The position numbers were made by a program, and so were the translations under genes. The notes under the pieces are model-generated. The model saw only the letters and a program-made list of their open reading frames with translations, searched no databases and was not told the DNA's origin. A stretch of DNA of 64,000 bases from Acidocella sp. (GTDB taxonomy: Bacteria; Pseudomonadota; Alphaproteobacteria; Acetobacterales; Acetobacteraceae), in NCBI RefSeq assembly GCF_035535915.1, contig NZ_DATLPB010000012.1:988-64987 (forward strand). The letters run 5' to 3'. Shown piece by piece: positions 1 through 61,569 of the stretch. Numbering within the stretch: the first letter of the stretch is position 1; each line of letters begins with the position of its first letter.

Positions 1-1034
<1,034 letters not shown>

Positions 1035-1038
<4 letters not shown>

Positions 1039-2048
1039 AGCGACCCGAACAACGCGGCCGTATCGGACATCCGGCTCGAGAAGCCCCATTCATTGTCATA
1101 CCAGCCCATCACCCGGGCCAGCGCGCCGTCGACCACCGTGGTCTGCGGGGCGTCGAAGCTGCAGGAGAAGGCGACGTGGTTGAAGTCCGCGCTGACCAGC
1201 TTGGCGGTGGAATAATCCAGGATGCCCTTGAGCTCGCCTTCGGAGGCAAGCTTCATCGCCGCGTTGATCTCTTCGGCCGTGGGCTGCTTCTTGAGATTCA
1301 CGTCGAGCGAGACCAGCGACACGTTCGGGGTCGGCACGCGGATGGCGGTGCCGTCCAGCTTGCCCTTGAGCTCAGGCATCACCAGGCCCACGGCCTTCGC
1401 GGCGCCGGTGGTGGTCGGGATCATCGACAAAGCGGCGGCGCGGGCGCGGTGCAGGTCCTTGTGCAGCGTGTCCACGGTCTTCTGGTCGCCGGTATAGGAG
1501 TGGATGGTCACCATATAGCCGCGTTCGATGCCGAAATTCTCGTGCAGCACCTTCGCCATCGGGGCGAGGCAGTTGGTGGTGCAGGAGGCATTGGAAATGA
1601 TCGTCATGTCCTTGGTCAGGATCTTCTGGTTGACGCCGTAGACGATGGTGGCGTCCACCCCTTCCGCCGGCGCGGAAACCAGCACCTTGCGCGCGCCGGC
1701 GATGAGAAGCTGGGCGGCGGCTTCACGCTTGGTGAACAGACCGGTGCATTCCAGCGCCACGTCGACGCCGCCGAGCGGCACTTTCGGCGGGTCGCGCTCG
1801 GCCGTGACCTTGATCGGCGCATAGGTGCGGCCGGCATGGGTAATGATCAGGGAATCGCCCCGCACCTCTACGGTGCCGGGGAAACGGCCATGCACGGAAT
1901 CGTAGCGGAACAAATGCGCGTTGTCTTCGACGCTGCCCAGATCGTTGATCAGCACGGGCTCGACATCGGTACGGCCGCTCTCGATCATGGCGCGAAGCAC
2001 CAGACGGCCGATGCGCCCGAAACCGTTAATCGCGATTTTCACTGCCAC
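1035..2048 (-). CDS. gapA: Type I glyceraldehyde-3-phosphate dehydrogenase
   Basis: [21 protein letters not shown] and WYDNEWGFS motifs. Confidence 0.98.
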
Positions 2049-2051
2049 GTT

Positions 2052-4088
<2,037 letters not shown>

Positions 4089-4165
4089 CTTACGCCTGTT
4101 CCGTCGTGTCTGCGGCGTGCATAAAGCCAGTGCATTGAAGCGGCAACCCGGAGTTTTTCTTTTCC

Positions 4166-5431
4166 ATGACAGTACGAACGAACCAGCGGATTGACGGCAC
4201 CAGGCTGTGGGACAGTTTGATGGAGATCGCCAAGATCGGCGCGACGCCGAAAGGCGGCGTGAAGCGCCTGACGCTCAGCGAGGAGGATCGCCAGGGGCGG
4301 TTGTTGTTCCAGAGCTGGTGCGAGGCGCTGGGGCTGAAGGTCAGGGTCGACAGCATGGGCAATATGTTCGCAAGGCGCGAGGGGCGTGACCCGACGCGGC
4401 CGCCGGTGCTGATGGGTTCGCATCTCGACAGCCAGCCGACGGGCGGAAAGTTCGATGGCGCACTTGGTGTGATCGCCGGCCTGGAGGTGATGCGCACGCT
4501 GCACGACCTGAACATCGTGACGGAAGCGCCGATCGAGCTGGTGAACTGGACCGATGAGGAAGGTTGCCGCTTCGGCCGGGCGATGATGGGCAGCGCCGTG
4601 TGGTCGGGGCTGGAGCGGGAAGAGTCGATGAAGGCGCGGCGCGACGAAGACGGCGTCATCGTCGCCACGGCGTTGCAGGAGATCGGCTTCGCCGGGCCGG
4701 AGCCCTGCGCTTCCTTTCCGGCGGATGCGATGTTCGAGCTGCATATCGAACAGGGTCCGCTGCTGGAGGCGGGAGGGGAAAAAATCGGCATCGTCACCGG
4801 GGCGCAGGCGCAGATCTGGTACGAGGCGGAAGTGACCGGCTTCGATTCCCACGCCGGCACCACACCCCCGGTGGCGCGCCGGGATGCGTTGCTGACGGCG
4901 GCGCGCATCGTCGAGCTGGTGGACGCCATCATGCGCGAAGAGGGCGATACCAAAGTGACCGATCCCGGGCGCGGCACGGTCGGGCGGTTCACTGTTTACC
5001 CGAACTCGCCGAACGTGATCCCCGGCCGGGTGCGCTTCAACGTGGAGTTCCGCAATGTCTCGGAGGCGCGGATTGCCGAGATCGCGGCGACGTTCCCGGC
5101 GCGTGCCCAGGCGCTGGCCGAAGCCAACCGCACAAATCTCACGCTGAACACGGTGTTCCGCGTGCCGGCGCAGCCTTTCGATGCGGACTGCGTGGCGCTG
5201 GTGGAACAGGCCGCGGCGAAGCTCGGCTACCCCGCGCGCCGCATGGTCTCGGGCGCCGGGCACGATGCGGTGCACACCGCCTCATGCATCCCGACCGCGA
5301 TGATCTTCACCCCGTGCAAGGACGGGCTCTCGCATAACGAGGCGGAATCGATCGCGCCCGATGAGGCCGAGGCGGGGGCGCAAGTCCTGTTCGAGGCGGT
5401 GCTGGCGCGGGCGAACCGGGCCATCAAATGA
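4166..5431 (+). CDS. M20 family Zn-dependent amidohydrolase (N-carbamoyl-amino acid/allantoate hydrolase type)
   Basis: GSHLDSQPTGGKFDG, DEEG, ELHIEQGP, HAGTTP and SGAGHDA motifs. Confidence 0.9.
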   Translation: MTVRTNQRIDGTRLWDSLMEIAKIGATPKGGVKRLTLSEEDRQGRLLFQSWCEALGLKVRVDSMGNMFARREGRDPTRPPVLMGSHLDSQPTGGKFDGALGVIAGLEVMRTLHDLNIVTEAPIELVNWTDEEGCRFGRAMMGSAVWSGLEREESMKARRDEDGVIVATALQEIGFAGPEPCASFPADAMFELHIEQGPLLEAGGEKIGIVTGAQAQIWYEAEVTGFDSHAGTTPPVARRDALLTAARIVELVDAIMREEGDTKVTDPGRGTVGRFTVYPNSPNVIPGRVRFNVEFRNVSEARIAEIAATFPARAQALAEANRTNLTLNTVFRVPAQPFDADCVALVEQAAAKLGYPARRMVSGAGHDAVHTASCIPTAMIFTPCKDGLSHNEAESIAPDEAEAGAQVLFEAVLARANRAIK

Positions 5432-15601: not shown

Positions 15602-15643
15602 GCTGTCATAGCTCAGGGGTAGAGCACTTCATTGGTAATGAAG
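15602..15643 (+). repeat. attL core: 42-bp copy of the 5' half of tRNA-Thr(GGT)
   Basis: GCTGTCATAGCTCAGGGGTAGAGCACTTCATTGGTAATGAAG identical to 58566-58607; identity ends exactly after the anticodon stem. Confidence 0.95.
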
Positions 15644-15701: not shown

Positions 15702-15722
15702 CTGCACGCATGGTGCACGGAT
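15702..15722. repeat. Putative integrase arm-type site (left)
   Basis: CTGCACGCATGGTGCACGGAT identical to 58446-58466; internal TGCACGSA tandem. Confidence 0.7.
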
Positions 15723-16674: not shown

Positions 16675-16714
16675 GTGCGTCCCCTTGGGTGGTTGTTGCA
16701 GATTCTGCAACAAC

Positions 16715-17122
16715 TCATTTGGCGACCATCTCCCACTGGTCCGCATCAATGTCCGGCTTCTTCCATCCGATCACCAACCCATCGCCGCCGATCTTCATGA
16801 TGATATAGTCGCCGTACCCGTTATCGTTGACGCACAGAATGGAGTTAGGGACATAATATCCCTTCCACTTAGCCAGACCTGCGCCAGAGGCATCAAGCAA
16901 CCAATACCGGCCGTCGTCGCAGACCTTATAGTGAATATCCGCCGTGGTTCCGGGCGGCCAGTCGATAACGCGCCCCGTTTCCAATTCGATGACCGGGCAC
17001 CATGCATCTCTCTTGCGGCGAGGTATGTTGCCATCCTCGTCAACTTCACCGTTTAGAGTGGAGCCCTCCCAGTAGCGCACGCCAGCCTCTACCTCGATAT
17101 AGCGGGCTCTCTCGATGCTCAT
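16715..17122 (-). CDS. Phage hypothetical protein
   Basis: 135-aa ORF, coupled by ATGA overlap to the upstream gene. Confidence 0.75.
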   Translation of the reverse strand: MSIERARYIEVEAGVRYWEGSTLNGEVDEDGNIPRRKRDAWCPVIELETGRVIDWPPGTTADIHYKVCDDGRYWLLDASGAGLAKWKGYYVPNSILCVNDNGYGDYIIMKIGGDGLVIGWKKPDIDADQWEMVAK

Positions 17123-17319
17123 GGTGTGGACTGCCTCTCCTTGATAGCCTCGTTCAGCAGATCGCGTATCTGGACAAGATCATCTCCCGTCACGATCACA
17201 GAAGCATCCTCATTGTAGGCGAAGGTCACGCCGAAGCGGCCTATGCGAGAGACGACGAGAGTTTCGCGCTCTCCGCTCATGTTGCACGGGAAACTGAGTT
17301 TCGTTGATGTTTCGCTCAT
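17119..17319 (-). CDS. Phage hypothetical protein
   Basis: 66 aa, flanked on both sides by the 23-bp junction repeat. Confidence 0.7.
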   Translation of the reverse strand: MSETSTKLSFPCNMSGERETLVVSRIGRFGVTFAYNEDASVIVTGDDLVQIRDLLNEAIKERQSTP

Positions 17320-17618
17320 GGTATGGACTGCCTTTCATCGAGCATGACTATCTTGCAACCTTCCCTCTGCGGTGCGCGGGCGACCCAGCTCTGCTCGAAC
17401 TCGGCGATCTCCTCCGGCGTCAGCCGGCGCGCCATTACGACCGCCATCTGTGGCGGAAGCACCGTACCATATAGCGCTTTCGTATAGGCGGCGATGGCAT
17501 TGGCTATACGCTCTGATTTGGTCGGTTCGCTGTAGCGCTCCAGATCAAAATCGCAATCGAAGGCTTCCTCTGCCAGGCGCAGCGCCTCGGTATGCATTTC
17601 CTCGGGCGTCATGCTCAA
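17316..17618 (-). CDS. Phage hypothetical protein
   Basis: TTG start with GAGG RBS; ends ERQSIP; 4-bp overlaps. Confidence 0.7.
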   Translation of the reverse strand: MSMTPEEMHTEALRLAEEAFDCDFDLERYSEPTKSERIANAIAAYTKALYGTVLPPQMAVVMARRLTPEEIAEFEQSWVARAPQREGCKIVMLDERQSIP

Positions 17619-17887
17619 TTCTGGACCTCATTTGTCACCTGGCGCTCGATGATACGAGCGAAGTAATAGGGCACCTGTTCGATTGCGATCGTCGAGGTAA
17701 CTATGGTTCCACCCCCATCCCGGCCGACCACGGGATCTGCGTCGATTATCTTGGTCGCCTCGACGGCTTCTTGCAGTGAAACGTCGCTCAGGTCAGGCAT
17801 CGTGAAGCAGCCGAGCCCGTTGATAACGAAATAGCCGGCGCACAGGCGCCGATTGATATCTAGGGCACGCTTGCGGGTCATGCTCAT
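17615..17887 (-). CDS. Phage hypothetical protein
   Basis: 90 aa; 4-bp overlaps at both ends. Confidence 0.65.
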   Translation of the reverse strand: MSMTRKRALDINRRLCAGYFVINGLGCFTMPDLSDVSLQEAVEATKIIDADPVVGRDGGGTIVTSTIAIEQVPYYFARIIERQVTNEVQN

Positions 17888-18063
17888 GTGATGTCCTTTG
17901 TGTCAGGGATAATCGCATCAACCCAAGTCACAAAGCGCGCTATGCATTCATCGCGATCTTTGCGCCATTCGTCGGCAGTGAAGCCGGTAAACCATTTCTT
18001 GGTTCCATCCGGGCTTTCGGCCTGGACGGAGATGGATTTTGGGCGCTTGTCGCTTTCACTCAT
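17884..18063 (-). CDS. Phage hypothetical protein (59 aa, not in the ORF track)
   Basis: Manual translation MSESDKRPKSISVQAESPDGTKKWFTG...DTKDIT; ATGA overlaps at both ends. Confidence 0.7.
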   Translation of the reverse strand: MSESDKRPKSISVQAESPDGTKKWFTGFTADEWRKDRDECIARFVTWVDAIIPDTKDIT

Positions 18064-18434
18064 GATACGGACTGCCTCTCATGTTTTTGGGCCTCAAGCC
18101 CGGTCGCGAATAGAAGGCCGACATCCAGCTTCCCGGTTGCTTCGAGCATGCATTGCGCCATGACTTTCATGGACTCGTACACTCGCTCTCCGGGCTGCGG
18201 GACTTTGATTTCTTCCTCTGGTGCCGCCCACCCCATCAACTTGTGCTTAAAGAAGTCGCCCATCCTGGCCGCTACGGAACAGTTGGCCTTATCCTTGCCG
18301 TAGGTTGTCACATGCTCGCCGTGCGGCTCATGAGCTTCGCCAACCCGGCGAGCGATCACTACCACCTGGTCATAGCCGTATTCGTCAGCAATAATCTTCG
18401 CGGCTTTGATCGGTATGCGCTTCATTCGGCTCAA
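18060..18434 (-). CDS. Phage hypothetical protein
   Basis: 124 aa (YGYDQVVVIARR...HVTTYG); ends ERQSVS. Confidence 0.75.
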   Translation of the reverse strand: MSRMKRIPIKAAKIIADEYGYDQVVVIARRVGEAHEPHGEHVTTYGKDKANCSVAARMGDFFKHKLMGWAAPEEEIKVPQPGERVYESMKVMAQCMLEATGKLDVGLLFATGLEAQKHERQSVS

Positions 18435-18784
18435 TTGTTTTCTCCGTCTGTCAGGGCGCGCCGGTCAATCTCCGCGACAAGCGCGGCCTTGGCCAGGCGT
18501 ATGGACACCTCATCAAGTCCTGTGATCTTTGCTGCGCGCTTATAGGCCGCATCATCCAACTCCCTTGGCATCAGCACGCTGTCAGACGCGGCGAGGTAGG
18601 CATCGATGGCGGCGCGGATGACCTTTCGAAGATTAAGGCGACCGTCGATAACGACCTCGGTTAGGTCATCGTCAGGCGTAAGGCTGTCGCCAGTCGGGCC
18701 TGCAATGAAGCAGTCCCCGTCGCGTTCGATCTCGGCAACCGCAGCCCGCGCCGCGCGCTCGATTATGGTCGGGATGCCGCTCAT
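18431..18784 (-). CDS. Phage hypothetical protein
   Basis: MSGIPTIIERAAR...; start lies in junction repeat 4. Confidence 0.7.
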   Translation of the reverse strand: MSGIPTIIERAARAAVAEIERDGDCFIAGPTGDSLTPDDDLTEVVIDGRLNLRKVIRAAIDAYLAASDSVLMPRELDDAAYKRAAKITGLDEVSIRLAKAALVAEIDRRALTDGENN

Positions 18785-18990
18785 GGTGTGGACTGCCTTC
18801 CTTTTTTCATCGCCTGCCCTTCGGCCCAAACCTGCTTGAAGTGATCAAGCAGGCCGGCGCCGGCAAGATAGGTTTCCATATGATCGACATACTCAAGCAC
18901 GGCAGTGATGTCGCGCTTTAGGGATCGGCTAATATCGTTTTCCTCGTCGGTCATGACAGTCTCGCGCAAACCATCTAGAATTTCGCTCAT
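18781..18990 (-). CDS. Phage hypothetical protein
   Basis: 69 aa; ends GRQSTP; coupled to the resolvase-like gene. Confidence 0.7.
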   Translation of the reverse strand: MSEILDGLRETVMTDEENDISRSLKRDITAVLEYVDHMETYLAGAGLLDHFKQVWAEGQAMKKGRQSTP

Positions 18991-19595
18991 GATTTTGCCT
19001 TTCTACCAAAAATAGGTTGATCGCGCGGCCCGAGCTTCCGATAGGCCGTGGACGGGCTGATCCCGATCTTCGCCGCGGCGGCATTGCCGGTCAGCGCCGG
19101 GTCCAGCCAGATCGCCAGCGCGGCCTCCTTGGCCTTCCCCGTGAGCTTCGTAGGCGTGCCGCCCAGGCGGCCGGTTTCAGCCCGCCGGACGCGCGCCTTG
19201 GCCAGCGCAAAGCTGCGGGTCAGTGTCTCGGCCCGGTTGCAGAAATCCACCACAGCCAGCGCCTCAGGGCTCCACGGTATGGCCTGCCCTGTGCTGGCAT
19301 CGAACACCGCGCCCTCGCGCCTGCCGATGGCCTGCAGCACCTCGAAGACCGCACCACGCGAACCGCCCAGGACTGCCGGCGATGCCACGGCAAGCTCATC
19401 GCCCGGTCGCATGGCGCGCAACGCCTCGGCCAGATCGGGCCGAGGTTCGGCGCCAGACTTTCGCCGCTTCTGGGCACGGTCACACCACACGGGGCCTTCG
19501 TCGCTAAAGTCATCGATGCCCGCGCCGCGCAGCGCCTCCTTCTGCTCTTTGAGGCTTGGCAAACCCGGCGCTTCGTTCATGTATCCTAGTCGCAC
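18987..19595 (-). CDS. Serine resolvase-like protein with C-terminal HTH; canonical catalytic residues absent
   Basis: GTG start MRLGYMNEAPGLPSLKEQKEALRGAG; RPDLAEALRAMRPGDELAV; GGTPTKL; C-terminal AAAKIGISPSTAYRKL. Confidence 0.8.
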   Translation of the reverse strand: MRLGYMNEAPGLPSLKEQKEALRGAGIDDFSDEGPVWCDRAQKRRKSGAEPRPDLAEALRAMRPGDELAVASPAVLGGSRGAVFEVLQAIGRREGAVFDASTGQAIPWSPEALAVVDFCNRAETLTRSFALAKARVRRAETGRLGGTPTKLTGKAKEAALAIWLDPALTGNAAAAKIGISPSTAYRKLGPRDQPIFGRKAKS

Positions 19596-19652
19596 TATCT
19601 CGCACCTGTTGTCATGTTGACAGAATGACATAACAGATGATAGATTGCAATC

Positions 19653-19895: not shown

Positions 19896-20086
19896 TCTCG
19901 ACCAACTACGACCCCGAAGCGGACGCCCTCTATGTGCAGATCGCGCCAAAGGGAACGCCGGTTGCAGAGACCCGCGAGATTGAACCGGGCGTGATCCTGG
20001 ACGTTGACGCTAAGGGCTCCGTCATCGGTATCGAGGTGTTGGGCGTGCGCGCTCGGTCCGCTGGTACGCCGGCTGCCGCTGCCTGA
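19892..20086 (+). CDS. DUF2283-like putative antitoxin
   Basis: YDPEADALYV...GVILDVDAKGSVIGIEVLG. Confidence 0.85.
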   Translation: MISTNYDPEADALYVQIAPKGTPVAETREIEPGVILDVDAKGSVIGIEVLGVRARSAGTPAAAA

Positions 20087-20261
20087 TTCCGCTAAGTGAG
20101 GCGACGGAAGCCGGTAGGAGATAATCCGGCCCTGCTCACCGAATCGAGGGGTGGCTACGCACAGCAAGCCGAAAGGTTGTCCCGCTGCCAACGTCACAAT
20201 GCCACAGCGATAGTCCATGACTGCAGCCGCACTATCTGCCGTCGCCTCGCTTAGCTGAATC
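20085..20261 (+). other. 177-nt element closed by a 23-bp imperfect inverted repeat (candidate structured RNA or MITE)
   Basis: GATTCCGCTAAGTGAGGCGACGG (20085-20107) pairs with CCGTCGCCTCGCTTAGCTGAATC (20239-20261); internal hairpins. Confidence 0.6.
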
Positions 20262-20287
20262 GAGTCCCACAACTGCCCGGAGCCGAC

Positions 20288-20606: not shown

Positions 20607-20657
20607 GCTACTTTTTGTGAGCAAAAAGTAGCAAAAAACTTTTTAAAACTTTTCTTT
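20607..20657. repeat. Partial host palindromic repeat (copy D) inside the prophage
   Basis: GCTACTTTTTG-TGAG-CAAAAAGTAGC-AAAAAACTTT matches the left module of copies A, B and E. Confidence 0.85.
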
Positions 20658-20709: not shown

Positions 20710-21843
20710 CTATGCCTCTTTCCGAACCGGCCCGGCCGGCGTGCCGGCGAGGAACGCTTCGATCTGTGGCCGGTAGGCATCCGGCATTTTGTGCGCGTAG
20801 ATCTCGACCTGGTCGACGCTCTGCCAGCCGCCTTCGTTGCGCAGCAGCAGCAGGTCCTTGTGCAGGCAATAATGCCAGGTGGCCCAGGTGTGGCGCATGT
20901 CGTGCGGGGTGAATTCAGAGGTCCAGCGGCGCTTCGGTTTTCCTGTGACGCGGTGCTTGTACTCAACCCACTGGCCGGGCAGGCCGGCATGGCGGCAGGC
21001 GATCGCCCAGCCGGTCTTGATCTGCCCGCCGGCCTGGCGGTCATTGTTGTGATAGGCAGCGGCCTTGATCACTACCCTGCCAGCCTTGTTGCGGACTTCT
21101 CGGGTCAAAAACACATTGCCGCAGCGGTGCGGAATCGCGCTCAAGCTGGCGATCGCCGCCGGCGGCAGGTCGTAATGGCGTTCACGGCCGTTCTTGGTAT
21201 CGCGGAACACAACGCGGCCAGCGAATAGATCAACGTCCTCCCACTGCAGCTCGAGCGCCTCGGAAAGGCGTGCCCCGGTGAATAGGCAGAAGGCCAGCAG
21301 CGGGCGCAGATGCGGCGCCGCATGCTGGATCAGCGACGTCGCCTGGTCGGGGCGTAGGAAGGCCACACGAGAAGGCGGCTGGACGGGGATGTCGAATTTC
21401 GGGACGTCGCACCATTTGCGCTTGGCGGCATGGTTGAGCACGGCGCGCAGCGGGGCGAGCACGGTGCGCAATTTGTTGGCGTTGGACGCGTTCGCCGGCA
21501 GCAGTACCTGGTAGGCACGGTCGAGCGCTTCCTGGTCGATCTTGTCGAGTGTCGTGGTCTTGAAATGCAGCAGCAATGCCTTGAGGCGCTTCTGATCGGG
21601 TTCGGACGGCTGATGCGCCTGAATGAAGGCGGTTACGGCGCGTGGGAAGGGGACCGCAGCCTTGGTGCCAAAGACACTACTTTGCCAGAGCTCGGCCTCG
21701 CGGAGCGCGCAATAGGCTTTGGCTTGCTCGGGGTCAGCAGTGCCAGTGCTTTCGTAAACTCGCTGTCCGCGGACGGTGCCGCGGGCATAGAAGACGGACG
21801 TGCCAGGGCGCTTGACGGCTTTGATGCCTGTTGATCCGGGCAT
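20710..21843 (-). CDS. int: Tyrosine recombinase (phage integrase)
   Basis: FTGARLSEAL (R), DTKNG (K), HDMRHTWAT (HxxR), GGWQS...VEIYAH (Y); GGAGAG RBS. Confidence 0.95.
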   Translation of the reverse strand: MPGSTGIKAVKRPGTSVFYARGTVRGQRVYESTGTADPEQAKAYCALREAELWQSSVFGTKAAVPFPRAVTAFIQAHQPSEPDQKRLKALLLHFKTTTLDKIDQEALDRAYQVLLPANASNANKLRTVLAPLRAVLNHAAKRKWCDVPKFDIPVQPPSRVAFLRPDQATSLIQHAAPHLRPLLAFCLFTGARLSEALELQWEDVDLFAGRVVFRDTKNGRERHYDLPPAAIASLSAIPHRCGNVFLTREVRNKAGRVVIKAAAYHNNDRQAGGQIKTGWAIACRHAGLPGQWVEYKHRVTGKPKRRWTSEFTPHDMRHTWATWHYCLHKDLLLLRNEGGWQSVDQVEIYAHKMPDAYRPQIEAFLAGTPAGPVRKEA

Positions 21844-24487: not shown

Positions 24488-25360
24488 TCAGGCTTGATTG
24501 GCGTGGGGGAACGGCCAGCCGTCGATCACATTGACGGTGCCGGTCGGAAGGTCGGACGCAGGATCGCCGCCGCGGACGATGTCCGCCACCGCCTTATCCA
24601 GGATTTCCGTCATTACATCCTCGATGCGTAGCAGCTTGAAGCCGAGCTTCAGTTTGCCGTCGGTTAGGCGGTAGCGGAAACGCGCCGGGATTTTGAAACG
24701 GGGCGAGCCCTGGATCGGCGCGATCTGCAGCGTGAACTCCGTGGGAATCGCGATCTGGCCGGGGCCGACTTTGGCATCAACGCTCTCGATGTTCGTGAAC
24801 TGAACCTGTCCGCTCGACAGGTTCAGCGCCGACTTGAAATCGACGGCGCGCGTCGCCTGCAGATAGGTGACGATCTCAAGCATCTCGGCGCCCGGGGGAT
24901 TGTAAATATCCTGCAGATTTTCTTCGATGAATTCGGCGAAGGCGTCCTGCGGCAACATGGTGCCGTCGATCTTGTGCCACTTGGTCCATTCAGGGGTTTC
25001 GCGAAACTCAACATAGACCTTGAAGTCACGGTGGCCTGGCCCGGCATCGCCATTGTCGTTGAGGATCGCCACCATCCGTGGCTTCAGGATATTGGCGTCA
25101 AGATAGACGTTGGTGTTGCCGGCATCCTTGTTGTGGTAGATGAAGCTGTTCAGGGATTCGATGTTGAATACCGTGATGCTGCCGGCCTTGCGGCGCGGTG
25201 TCGCGGGCGGCCGGACGAGATCGAGATTTATGATCTCGGGTTTGCGGTTTTCCGTGCCGGGAATGAACAGCAGGTTGGCATCTGTCACCTCAACCTGGAT
25301 CGGTTTCAGGGCATCCTGGGCGACCTCAATAATCGCCTGTACGTCTTGCTTGTCGGTCAT
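24488..25360 (-). CDS. DUF2303 (YfdQ-like) phage protein
   Basis: W...DG..LPQDAFAEFIEENL, F.L.IAPIQG...ARFRYR pattern. Confidence 0.8.
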   Translation of the reverse strand: MTDKQDVQAIIEVAQDALKPIQVEVTDANLLFIPGTENRKPEIINLDLVRPPATPRRKAGSITVFNIESLNSFIYHNKDAGNTNVYLDANILKPRMVAILNDNGDAGPGHRDFKVYVEFRETPEWTKWHKIDGTMLPQDAFAEFIEENLQDIYNPPGAEMLEIVTYLQATRAVDFKSALNLSSGQVQFTNIESVDAKVGPGQIAIPTEFTLQIAPIQGSPRFKIPARFRYRLTDGKLKLGFKLLRIEDVMTEILDKAVADIVRGGDPASDLPTGTVNVIDGWPFPHANQA

Positions 25361-58445: not shown

Positions 58446-58466
58446 CTGCACGCATGGTGCACGGAT
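58446..58466. repeat. Putative integrase arm-type site (right)
   Basis: Identical 21-mer to 15702-15722. Confidence 0.7.
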
Positions 58467-58565: not shown

Positions 58566-58640
58566 GCTGTCATAGCTCAGGGGTAGAGCACTTCATTGGT
58601 AATGAAGAGGTCCTGGGTTCAATTCCCAGTGACAGCACCA
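58566..58640 (+). tRNA. tRNA-Thr(GGT), intact; 58566-58607 is the attR core
   Basis: Cloverleaf: acceptor GCTGTCA/TGACAGC, anticodon loop TTGGTAA, TTCAATT T-loop, CCA end. Confidence 0.97.
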
Positions 58641-61374: not shown

Positions 61375-61569
61375 AAGAAAGCGCTACTTTTTGTGAACAA
61401 AAAGTAGCAAAAAAACTTTGTTATGCTGGGCCGTGGGCGTTGTCGCTGACACAGCCCATGCCCTCCGGGGCTATTCCAACGGTGCTGCGCACCGCCGGAA
61501 CCTTCAGCCCCTCCGCCCGGCGTAACAAAAGTTTTTGCGCCGCTTTTTTCAAAAAGCGGCCGCTTTCTT
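61375..61569. repeat. Composite palindromic intergenic repeat, copy E (expanded centre)
   Basis: Both terminal hairpins and AAGAAAG/CTTTCTT ends; centre shares TGGGCGTTGTCGC.GACACAGCCCATG with copy B; abuts the patatin stop. Confidence 0.9.

Follow-up and report, generated by a model that had tools for sequence, protein, structure and literature searches.

Here we describe a short linker sequence that recurs between otherwise unrelated small genes of a prophage in Acidocella sp. (assembly GCF_035535915.1, contig NZ_DATLPB010000012.1). The prophage lies in a stretch of 64,000 nucleotides (nt) that we analysed as a whole; this stretch is the window, and all coordinates refer to it unless another contig is named. 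The linker unites a Shine-Dalgarno (SD) sequence, a stop codon and a start codon in 23–25 nt. It is present at four junctions of one gene array, and the same sequence separates unrelated genes in other phage contigs. We lean towards the view that the linker is an SD/stop/start element for translational coupling that doubles as a short homology for general recombination. An earlier note on this DNA had reported four near-identical minus-strand junctions, which it interpreted as an integron-like array and as a candidate for an undescribed system. The four junctions are all where it had placed them.

The array is a chain of nine open reading frames (ORFs), all on the minus strand, which runs from position 19595 down to 16715 and comprises a head gene and eight small genes (g2 to g9). 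The linker, which we call type A, has a core of the form AGGCAGTCC-NNNN-CATGAG at 17118–17136, 17315–17333, 18059–18077 and 18780–18798. All four junctions fit AGGCAGTCC-RYAY-CATGAG, and the corresponding 23-mers start at 17117, 17314, 18058 and 18779. The core AGGCAGTCCNNNNCATGAG matches four times against an expectation of 0.11, and none of 100 dinucleotide-preserving shuffles yields four or more matches; for the 23-mer, with up to three mismatches allowed, there are three matches against an expectation of 0.00. In a genome scan, the core is absent from the rest of the 3.66-Mb assembly, and all of its copies are these four sites. The four spacers are not identical (ACACC, ATACC, GTATC), and the units between linkers consist of one, two or three genes. 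The array also holds a second recurrent linker (type B, TGACAAATGAGGTCCAGAATTGAGC, minus strand, 17613–17637).

The ORFs upstream of the type A linkers end in nearly the same peptide (ERQSTP, ERQSIP, ERQSVS and GRQSTP), and each time the stop codon overlaps the next start codon as ATGA. The ORF ends thereby confirm what the earlier note had said of shared tails and overlaps between unrelated genes. Simple duplication, which the note had named as a possible refutation, does not explain the tails, as an all-against-all BLASTP comparison of the nine ORFs for paralogy returns the shared tail alone (best E = 0.48, 7 residues). The statement that all seven small genes start with Met-Ser holds in part. 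There are eight small genes, and the start codon context is ATGAG[C/T] (Met-Ser) in six of them; g4 (18434) and g7 (17618) have TTGAGC, followed 6–9 nt on by an in-frame ATG, and it is this ATG that relatives and other gene callers prefer over TTGAGC. Within the prophage, a run of six consecutive ATGAG[C/T] overlap junctions occurs in this operon alone.

Type A linkers are also found between unrelated genes in other phage contigs. The exact pattern stands at true ATGA junctions of small ORFs in contigs L034, L035, L052, L068 (twice), L069, L070, L097 and L116, and ahead of genes in L050, L051 and L053. Together with the window this amounts to 16 instances and 14 distinct gene pairs, spread over the window and 11 viral or soil contigs with a locus GC content of 0.39–0.68. 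The proteins that flank these linkers are unrelated. An alignment of the 16 instances limits conservation to about 25 nt, ATGAR-AGGCAGTCC-RYAYC-ATGAG-C, a block that is longer than the 23-mer, has sharp edges and lies between unrelated flanks. In the last two codons before the stop, third positions are fixed while first and second positions vary (T/I/V/A/E and P/S). Hence, the constraint on type A appears to act on the nucleotides and not on the peptide. The rare arginine codon AGG is used in every type A instance. The same spacer recurs at the four junctions of the array and at over ten in other contigs, between unrelated gene pairs and in phages of very different GC content, and such identity is best explained by copying and not by convergence.

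One could also argue that the linker is a general signal of the host family or of bacteria. Two genome scans rule this out. Across 301 genomes of the host family (the window's own and 300 others) we found one-mismatch singletons only, at about twice the number obtained with a reversed-pattern control. In an exact scan with one genome per species (185,579 species, 596 Gb) we found 13 singletons, none of them between two small ORFs. A loosened type A pattern, when searched in viral contigs, mostly returned one unrelated conserved gene family.

The other linker types have to be read with more care. Type B, with the consensus TGACANATGAGGTCCAGAA[A/T]TGAGC, is common to the window (17613–17637) and to L052, L070 and L117, where it has one to three changes; a third linker (type C, GGAGCCGACAAATGAGC) is common to L034 and L069. 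The short cores of types B and C also occur in unrelated viral contigs, with 8 and 22 matches, respectively. We dropped these distant matches as proof of spread, because a permuted-spacer control, the exact 17-mer SD-spacer-ATGAGC, matches viral contigs as well (6 matches compared with 22 for type C). Types B and C are therefore counted only within related arrays, where identity extends over about 25 nt. As strings of the form SD-spacer-ATGAGC recur by function and by chance, we build our case on type A only.

Repeated linkers are not a peculiarity of this array, and other phage arrays carry their own. Contig L079, which we found through the domain of g4, has a repeated junction GATGGAGAGGTGAAGCC-[G/A]TGA at 4640, 4777 and 4962, with DGEVKP tails, and the same junction is present in L081 at 4216. 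In L077 it is GGGAGACAGCCATGAGTGACCCCCT that is repeated. A different arrangement exists in L120 (6787–6812) and L121 (5243–5268), where the core GGCAGTC stands twice in tandem around a start codon (GAAAGGCAGTCCAATGAGGCAGTCTGAA). The genes of L120 and L121 start with MRQS, and the reading frame matches that of RQS in the type A tail; in L124 (5664) a single copy follows the start codon, and this gene begins with MRQS as well. Type A might descend from such a gene start after truncation.

What does the linker do in translation? The junctions of the operon are 4-nt ATGA stop/start overlaps, each with a GARAGG SD sequence inside the upstream gene, so that SD, stop and start are indeed packed together as the earlier note had it. 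GAAAGG is exactly complementary to CCUUUC, which lies in the 3' tail of the 16S rRNA, ...CACCUCCUUUCA, taken from a genome of the same genus. Coupling of such ATGA overlaps by termination-reinitiation is known (PMC6728339, PMC10666635). The genes of the array are co-directed, overlap by ATGA and carry the SD inside the upstream gene, which is the structure of a termination-reinitiation pair, and we infer that translation of the array is coupled in this way. Known ATGA pairs share this structure with the array, but they have no repeated, horizontally shared spacer and no role in gene shuffling.

The SD, the stop and the start are accounted for by translation. The 11-nt spacer is not. In type A the SD, the spacer and the start ATGAGC form one fixed block of 23–25 nt, whereas the other junctions of the operon have the same SD with quite different spacers and a 7-nt spacing. 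We looked for pairing of the linker with 16S rRNA of the same genus outside the anti-SD region and found 7-mer complements only, with RNAduplex energies no better than those of shuffled motifs. A conserved RNA structure that hides the start codon can be rejected too: the folds of ten instances are inconsistent (z-scores −1.5 to +2.2), and a weak AUG/CAU pairing is not general. Parts of the linker can also serve without an overlapping upstream gene. The sequence GAAAGGCAGTC is used as a plain ribosome binding site (RBS) in L120 and L121 (GAAAGGCAGTCCA-ATG) and in L123 (GAAAGGCAGTCACAAA-ATG), and in L053 type A stands ahead of short or absent upstream ORFs.

If genes are exchanged between arrays, how do the boundaries of the exchanged pieces relate to the linker? 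Two cassettes have exact boundaries. The g8 cassette is 95% identical at the nucleotide level to soil contig L069 over exactly 17117–17319, with other genes on both sides. The matching tract extends from the ATGAGC of g8 to the ATGAGC that follows linker J1 (minus strand, 17117–17139, GAGAGGCAGTCCACACCATGAGC), and 5' of g8 the contig L069 has GGAGCCGACAAATGAGC where the window has type A. A second cassette is shared by L068 and L097 at 91% identity, from its ATG through a type A variant (AGGCAGTCCGARTCATGAGC), and its neighbors are unrelated. In both comparisons at the level of cassettes the 3' limit is a type A linker, in a sample of two that is too small for statistics. In the low-GC viral contig L097 (GC content 0.48), all that is left of a head-gene homologue at positions 3545–3612 is its final ~60 nt (...RDQPIFGRKPKK*), and the cassette that L068 also has follows directly. 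This remnant looks like a scar of illegitimate acquisition from a head-gene array.

Homologous genes are joined differently in different arrays. The g7 homologues of L122 and L127 (55% and 66% identity) end in PEKSRIWTAFNS and ALLDRL compared with DERQSIP in the window, which makes three different 3' junctions, and a homologous gene pair of L052 and L069 likewise has differing junctions. Homologues of g4 in nine viral contigs match query residues 3–89 only, mostly end by residue 70–83 and have other junctions. The C-terminal extension of g4, about 45 residues that end in the linker (ERQSVS), is missing from these nine homologues, whose domain spans about 70 amino acids (aa), and the g4 fusion may be the product of out-of-register recombination at a junction. 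On a larger scale, head-gene homologues (53–95% identity) lead small-gene arrays that are wholly different, and do so in different phage backbones; Erf/YqaJ or RecT is encoded by some of these backbones. Arrays headed by this family are known from 35 clusters. Related arrays do not keep a fixed gene order; it was a fixed order that the earlier note had said would speak against its reading.

One of the best-resolved breakpoints between close relatives comes from L117, a JGI soil contig whose positions 1–4900 are 99.8% identical to the prophage backbone at 25169–20270. Beyond 20270, L117 has no DUF4258/DUF2283 pair, its head gene is only 78% identical, and a different array of three genes follows. 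It also lacks the folded region at 20085–20261, and its att-proximal arm consists of three small genes and an SRAP gene. The att-proximal arm appears to be a hot spot of swapping with a breakpoint at about 20270.

The head gene (minus strand, 18987–19595, with a GTG start at 19595 or an ATG start at 19580) had been taken as a pointer to a dedicated recombination system, since it resembles a resolvase. It is a degenerate homologue of the serine recombinases (resolvase/invertase) with a C-terminal helix-turn-helix (HTH). Its match to the DNA invertases of phrog_125 is confined to residues 127–181, the HTH (E = 2.8e-7). The match to the Gin invertase structure (PDB 4m6f) is weak (E = 0.005, residues 37–186), with the Gin motif DRLGRS facing AVLGGS, and there is no Pfam Resolvase match at E <= 0.1. 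The catalytic set of serine recombinases, in gamma-delta numbering, comprises Ser10, Arg8, Asp67, Arg68 and Arg71. In an alignment of 32 homologues both motifs are replaced, the N-terminal Y-x-R-V-S-T by Y-x-R-E-A-P-G-L-P and the second by PAVLGGS, and hence Arg8, the serine nucleophile, Asp67, Arg68 and Arg71 are missing throughout the family. From the absence of these residues the head gene would be catalytically dead, and the resolvase-like sequence no longer points to a dedicated system. The DNA-binding HTH domain is retained, as the phrog_125 match and the Gin alignment up to residue 186 show, and the protein is probably a DNA-binding regulator. A divergent control region at 19596–19652, between the head gene and the DUF4258/DUF2283 pair, contains a dyad (CTGTTATGTCAT..ATGACAACAG); a CTGTCA-N6-7-TAACAG dyad is retained 5' of the homologous genes in L116 and L117, and L118 has a degenerate form of it. 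The junction between the head gene and g2 (minus strand, 18985–19007, GGTAGAAAGGCAAAATCATGAGC; GAAAGG SD, 7-nt spacer, ATGA overlap) is conserved behind the head-gene homologues of L116 and L118.

In the explanation that we favor, though with modest confidence, general recombination would act between copies of the linker, carried out by host RecA or by single-strand annealing proteins of phages. The copies could lie in one genome or in co-resident phages. A crossover would delete, insert or exchange whole genes while frame, stop and restart are kept, and homologous recombination between linker copies, as the simplest route of copying, would uncouple the linker from the genes that flank it. Larger swaps would rely on other homology, for example the conserved head gene or the backbone. 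A length of 23–25 nt is about the minimum for efficient homologous recombination in Escherichia coli. For phage recombinases, relaxed homologous recombination is documented (PMC3945230). That crossovers have fallen within the linker we infer from the cassette boundaries and from the spread of the spacer.

Several observations weigh against this explanation. The type A instances were collected with the core as the search key, and the invariance of the core is thus partly due to ascertainment; the extension of the block to both sides and its sharp edges are not explained in this way. Part of the sharing of linkers could be convergence, because viral contigs also yield repeated exact matches to SD-spacer-ATGAGC 17-mers where no relationship exists. 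At the 5' boundary of both cassettes (g8 in L069, and L068 with L097) the shared sequence is only the 6-nt ATGAGC, and the partners have different linker types there. The breakpoint relative to L117 is at 20270 and not at a linker. L126 (1068 bp) is a natural recombinant: its toxin gene and the greater part of its head gene resemble the window (97–100%), and its first cassette and the final ~100 nt of its head gene resemble L117 (95–100%). The crossover is near nt 880–920, inside the head gene rather than in a linker. No deletion, duplication or circle from linker to linker was seen among the copies of the array that we compared. The only other copies, L115 (100% identical in DNA) and a JGI contig (compared by gene order), have the same order and possibly derive from the same sample. 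Finally, no recombinase of the Erf, RecT or Red-beta kind was identified in this prophage. The expectation that gene content changes exactly at the junctions therefore holds for two cassettes (91–95% identity) and fails for the breakpoints at 20270 and inside the head gene. L126 shows that homologous recombination operates in this region and, because the breakpoints of L117 and L126 lie elsewhere, exchange is not restricted to linkers. It seems to use any available homology, the linker being one such tract.

It is also conceivable, if unlikely, that the whole 23–25-nt block is purely functional, as an optimised module for reinitiation or ribosome binding or as the site of an RNA-binding regulator. 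Selection alone would then keep the block, recombination at the block would be irrelevant, and the mosaic boundaries would reflect selection for intact genes after random illegitimate recombination. The use of its parts as a plain RBS in L120, L121 and L123, its place in L053 ahead of short or absent upstream ORFs, the maintenance of the linker over contigs with a GC content of 0.39–0.68 and the fixed third codon positions, which signal a nucleotide-level constraint, all fit such a module, and the permuted control shows that short SD-ATGAGC strings do converge. But the spacer has neither complementarity to 16S rRNA beyond chance nor a consistent RNA fold, and junctions in the same operon manage with other spacers at 7-nt spacing, from which it follows that coupling does not need this spacer. 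It is also all but impossible that four junctions here and more than ten elsewhere converged by chance on one 11-nt spacer, and two cassettes have boundaries that are nucleotide-exact on both sides. Less likely again is that the repeats are insertion scars, a record of past events and not a site of current exchange. A gene would have entered as a circular or linear unit with one copy of the junction, and a single crossover or template switch at a junction already resident would have duplicated the junction on both sides. A gene and its 3' linker do seem to travel together: g8 is flanked by type A copies at both ends, spaced 197 nt apart, of which the relative in L069 has only the 3' one, and L068 and L097 behave likewise. 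Type A and the head-gene junction have GAAAGGCA...ATGAGC in common, and the mini-circles of promoter-early stem-loop (PeSL) cassettes provide a precedent (PMC2839356). However, the four copies differ in their spacers (ACACC, ATACC, GTATC) and none copies the head-gene junction, the units between linkers hold one, two or three genes, and the scenario overlaps heavily with recombination between linker copies.

We would be surprised if the linker turned out to be a true capture site, the translational counterpart of an integron attachment site, common to a guild of soil phages. Units of a gene and its linker would then leave as excised circles, or template switching would copy them, and any resident linker could take them up, at rates far above those of ordinary short-homology recombination and possibly with the help of the conserved HTH protein of the dead-resolvase family or of a phage annealing protein. 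Least credible, and in our opinion very improbable, is a dedicated integron-like system in which the linker would be the target of a specific recombinase that actively excises cassettes and integrates them. Direct repeats do bound promoterless cassettes downstream of a gene from a recombinase family, and the content of the array is highly variable between relatives. Yet that family has lost Arg8, the serine nucleophile, Asp67, Arg68 and Arg71, the sole integrase is the tyrosine integrase of the prophage, which has an att site and arm repeats of its own, neither dyad symmetry nor a hairpin exists in the linker, L034 and L035 have a single type A copy with no head gene nearby, and breakpoints also lie away from linkers, at 20270 and inside the head gene. 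The array yielded neither a dedicated recombinase nor an attC-like structure, and we saw no direct evidence of excision. Nothing in it points to dedicated machinery, and the integron-like reading of the earlier note is not borne out.

The resemblance to integrons is one of outcome: cassettes that lack promoters, all face one way and vary in number and order are expressed from one upstream promoter. The means differ. IntI, attI and folded attC sites are missing at the array, and the linkers are direct repeats of 23–25 nt inside coding sequence. No IntI-type recombinase with an attI site is adjacent; the only tyrosine integrase (20710–21843) is 1.1 kb away and serves the tRNA-Thr att site of the prophage. 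The linkers also show no attC-type inverted repeats that fold as hairpins. Unlike in integrons, exchange in the array is probably the work of general homologous recombination.

Closer parallels come from phages. Boundary or "linker" sequences of lambdoid phages were reportedly proposed within the modular theory of phage evolution (Susskind and Botstein are named for it, as are Clark and colleagues in 2001 for HK620). These are short conserved sequences at gene boundaries between unrelated modules, proposed as homologous crossover points, with mosaic joints at gene borders. The type A linker is likewise a short sequence (~25 nt, 16 instances) between non-homologous genes in different phages. 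It differs in that it is a complete unit for translational coupling, with the SD inside the upstream gene, an overlapping stop and start and a fixed second codon, and in that it adds a common C-terminal peptide to unrelated proteins. It also occurs four times in one operon of orphan genes, in the prophage of a soil metagenome-assembled genome.

In the PeSL cassettes of T4-type phages a repeated regulatory motif expresses and shuffles ORFan genes (PMC2839356, PMC4122927). As in our array, a repeated motif flanks small ORFans in hyperplastic regions. The PeSL motif keeps an incoming gene expressed, and recombination between its copies accounts for the insertions, deletions and replacements by which close relatives differ, much as we propose for the linker. 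In the window, four linkers flank ORFans in an arm that is wholly different in a prophage of 99.8% identity. A sigma-70 promoter with a stem-loop terminator, of which the PeSL motif consists, is absent, as the coding strand has no promoter-like site and the linkers have no terminator. PeSL units are intergenic, with promoter and terminator, and act on transcription, whereas the array linker is 23–25 nt long, lies within coding sequence and acts on translation; mini-circles have been shown physically for PeSL. The idea of an undescribed system thus has precedents in concept, in lambdoid boundary sequences and in PeSL cassettes (PMC2839356, PMC4122927), with other motifs.

Little can be said about what the small genes do. 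None of the eight proteins has a Pfam, PADLOC or NCBIfam match, and PHROGs gave a match for g4 only, to a family of unknown function (phrog_38816). All of the following features are on the minus strand. The first small gene, g2 (18781–18990), encodes a 69-aa orphan with the tail GRQSTP and no family match, and is joined by type A linker J4 (18779–18801, GGAAGGCAGTCCACACCATGAGC) to g3 (18431–18784), a 117-aa orphan. Next is g4 (18060–18434), with 124 aa, or 121 aa from the ATG at 18425, in which residues 4–73 form the phrog_38816 domain (E = 1.1e-32). Linker J3 (18058–18080, GAGAGGCAGTCCGTATCATGAGT) leads to g5 (17884–18063; 59-aa orphan) and g6 (17615–17887; 90-aa orphan, tail NEVQN), and the type B linker to g7 (17316–17618; 100 aa, or 98 aa from the ATG, tail ERQSIP). 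Linker J2 (17314–17336, GAAAGGCAGTCCATACCATGAGC), which has a 40-nt match to L034 at 90%, precedes g8 (17119–17319; 66-aa orphan). The last gene of the array, g9 (16715–17122; 135 aa), shows weak DNA similarity to hypothetical genes of Pseudomonas phages.

The array looks like a single polycistronic operon of small accessory genes, because no promoter-like site is found on the coding strand within it and a hairpin follows its last gene. This perfect hairpin (GTTGTTGCAG-AAT-CTGCAACAAC, 16692–16714) was read from the sequence, lies between the array and a convergent D12 methyltransferase gene and is the probable end of the operon; a terminator scan left it unscored, and it has no T run. On the other side the array is bordered by the divergent DUF4258/DUF2283 pair (toxin-antitoxin). 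The prophage measures 43 kb, is myovirus-like and is integrated in tRNA-Thr, with the array in the hypervariable, attL-proximal arm between attL and int. Its left end, attL (plus strand, 15602–15643), is a 42-bp copy of part of tRNA-Thr with a partner at 58566–58607, and it is the 5' part of the tRNA gene that is repeated rather than the usual 3' part. A 21-bp direct repeat (CTGCACGCATGGTGCACGGAT) at 15702–15722 and 58446–58466, set in from the left end by 59 nt and from the right end by 120 nt, resembles the two arm-type sites of an integrase. The prophage encodes a tyrosine integrase, a ParB-like protein, two D12 methyltransferases, a CI-like repressor, a CII-like activator and a DnaB-like helicase, as well as terminase, portal, tail sheath, tape measure and baseplate proteins and an O-acetyltransferase moron. 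A hairpin-forming repeat of about 32 bp (GCTACTTTTTGTGA..CAAAAAGTAGCAAAAAA) occurs downstream of int (20607–20638) and again in host DNA outside the prophage (61383–61414). No 16S or 23S rRNA signature was found in the 127-contig assembly, as expected of a metagenome-assembled genome. In one search of sequencing runs, the array sequence turned up in soil metagenome runs only, three in number, with 0.99, 0.25 and 0.13 of the sampled words.

Phage genomes are mosaics with joints at gene borders, and ever since the modular theory it has been argued whether linkers guide these joints or whether the joints are random and filtered by selection. To our knowledge, few clear phage linkers exist. The array is a compact and testable case, as one sequence of 23–25 nt gives a ribosome site, a stop and a restart, and an exchange within it would deliver a new gene in frame and expressed. 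The linker can be traced across metagenomes, with 14 gene pairs and two cassettes that each occur in two contexts. It also holds a warning for annotation: a C-terminal peptide that is the same in unrelated small phage proteins can be the by-product of a nucleotide signal. Should exchange be frequent, the linker would be usable to build or diversify coupled gene arrays, and the movement of accessory genes, possibly anti-defence ones, between soil phages could be followed with it. And if the linker were, after all, a true capture site, phages would trade ready-to-express accessory genes across the boundaries of host and GC content.

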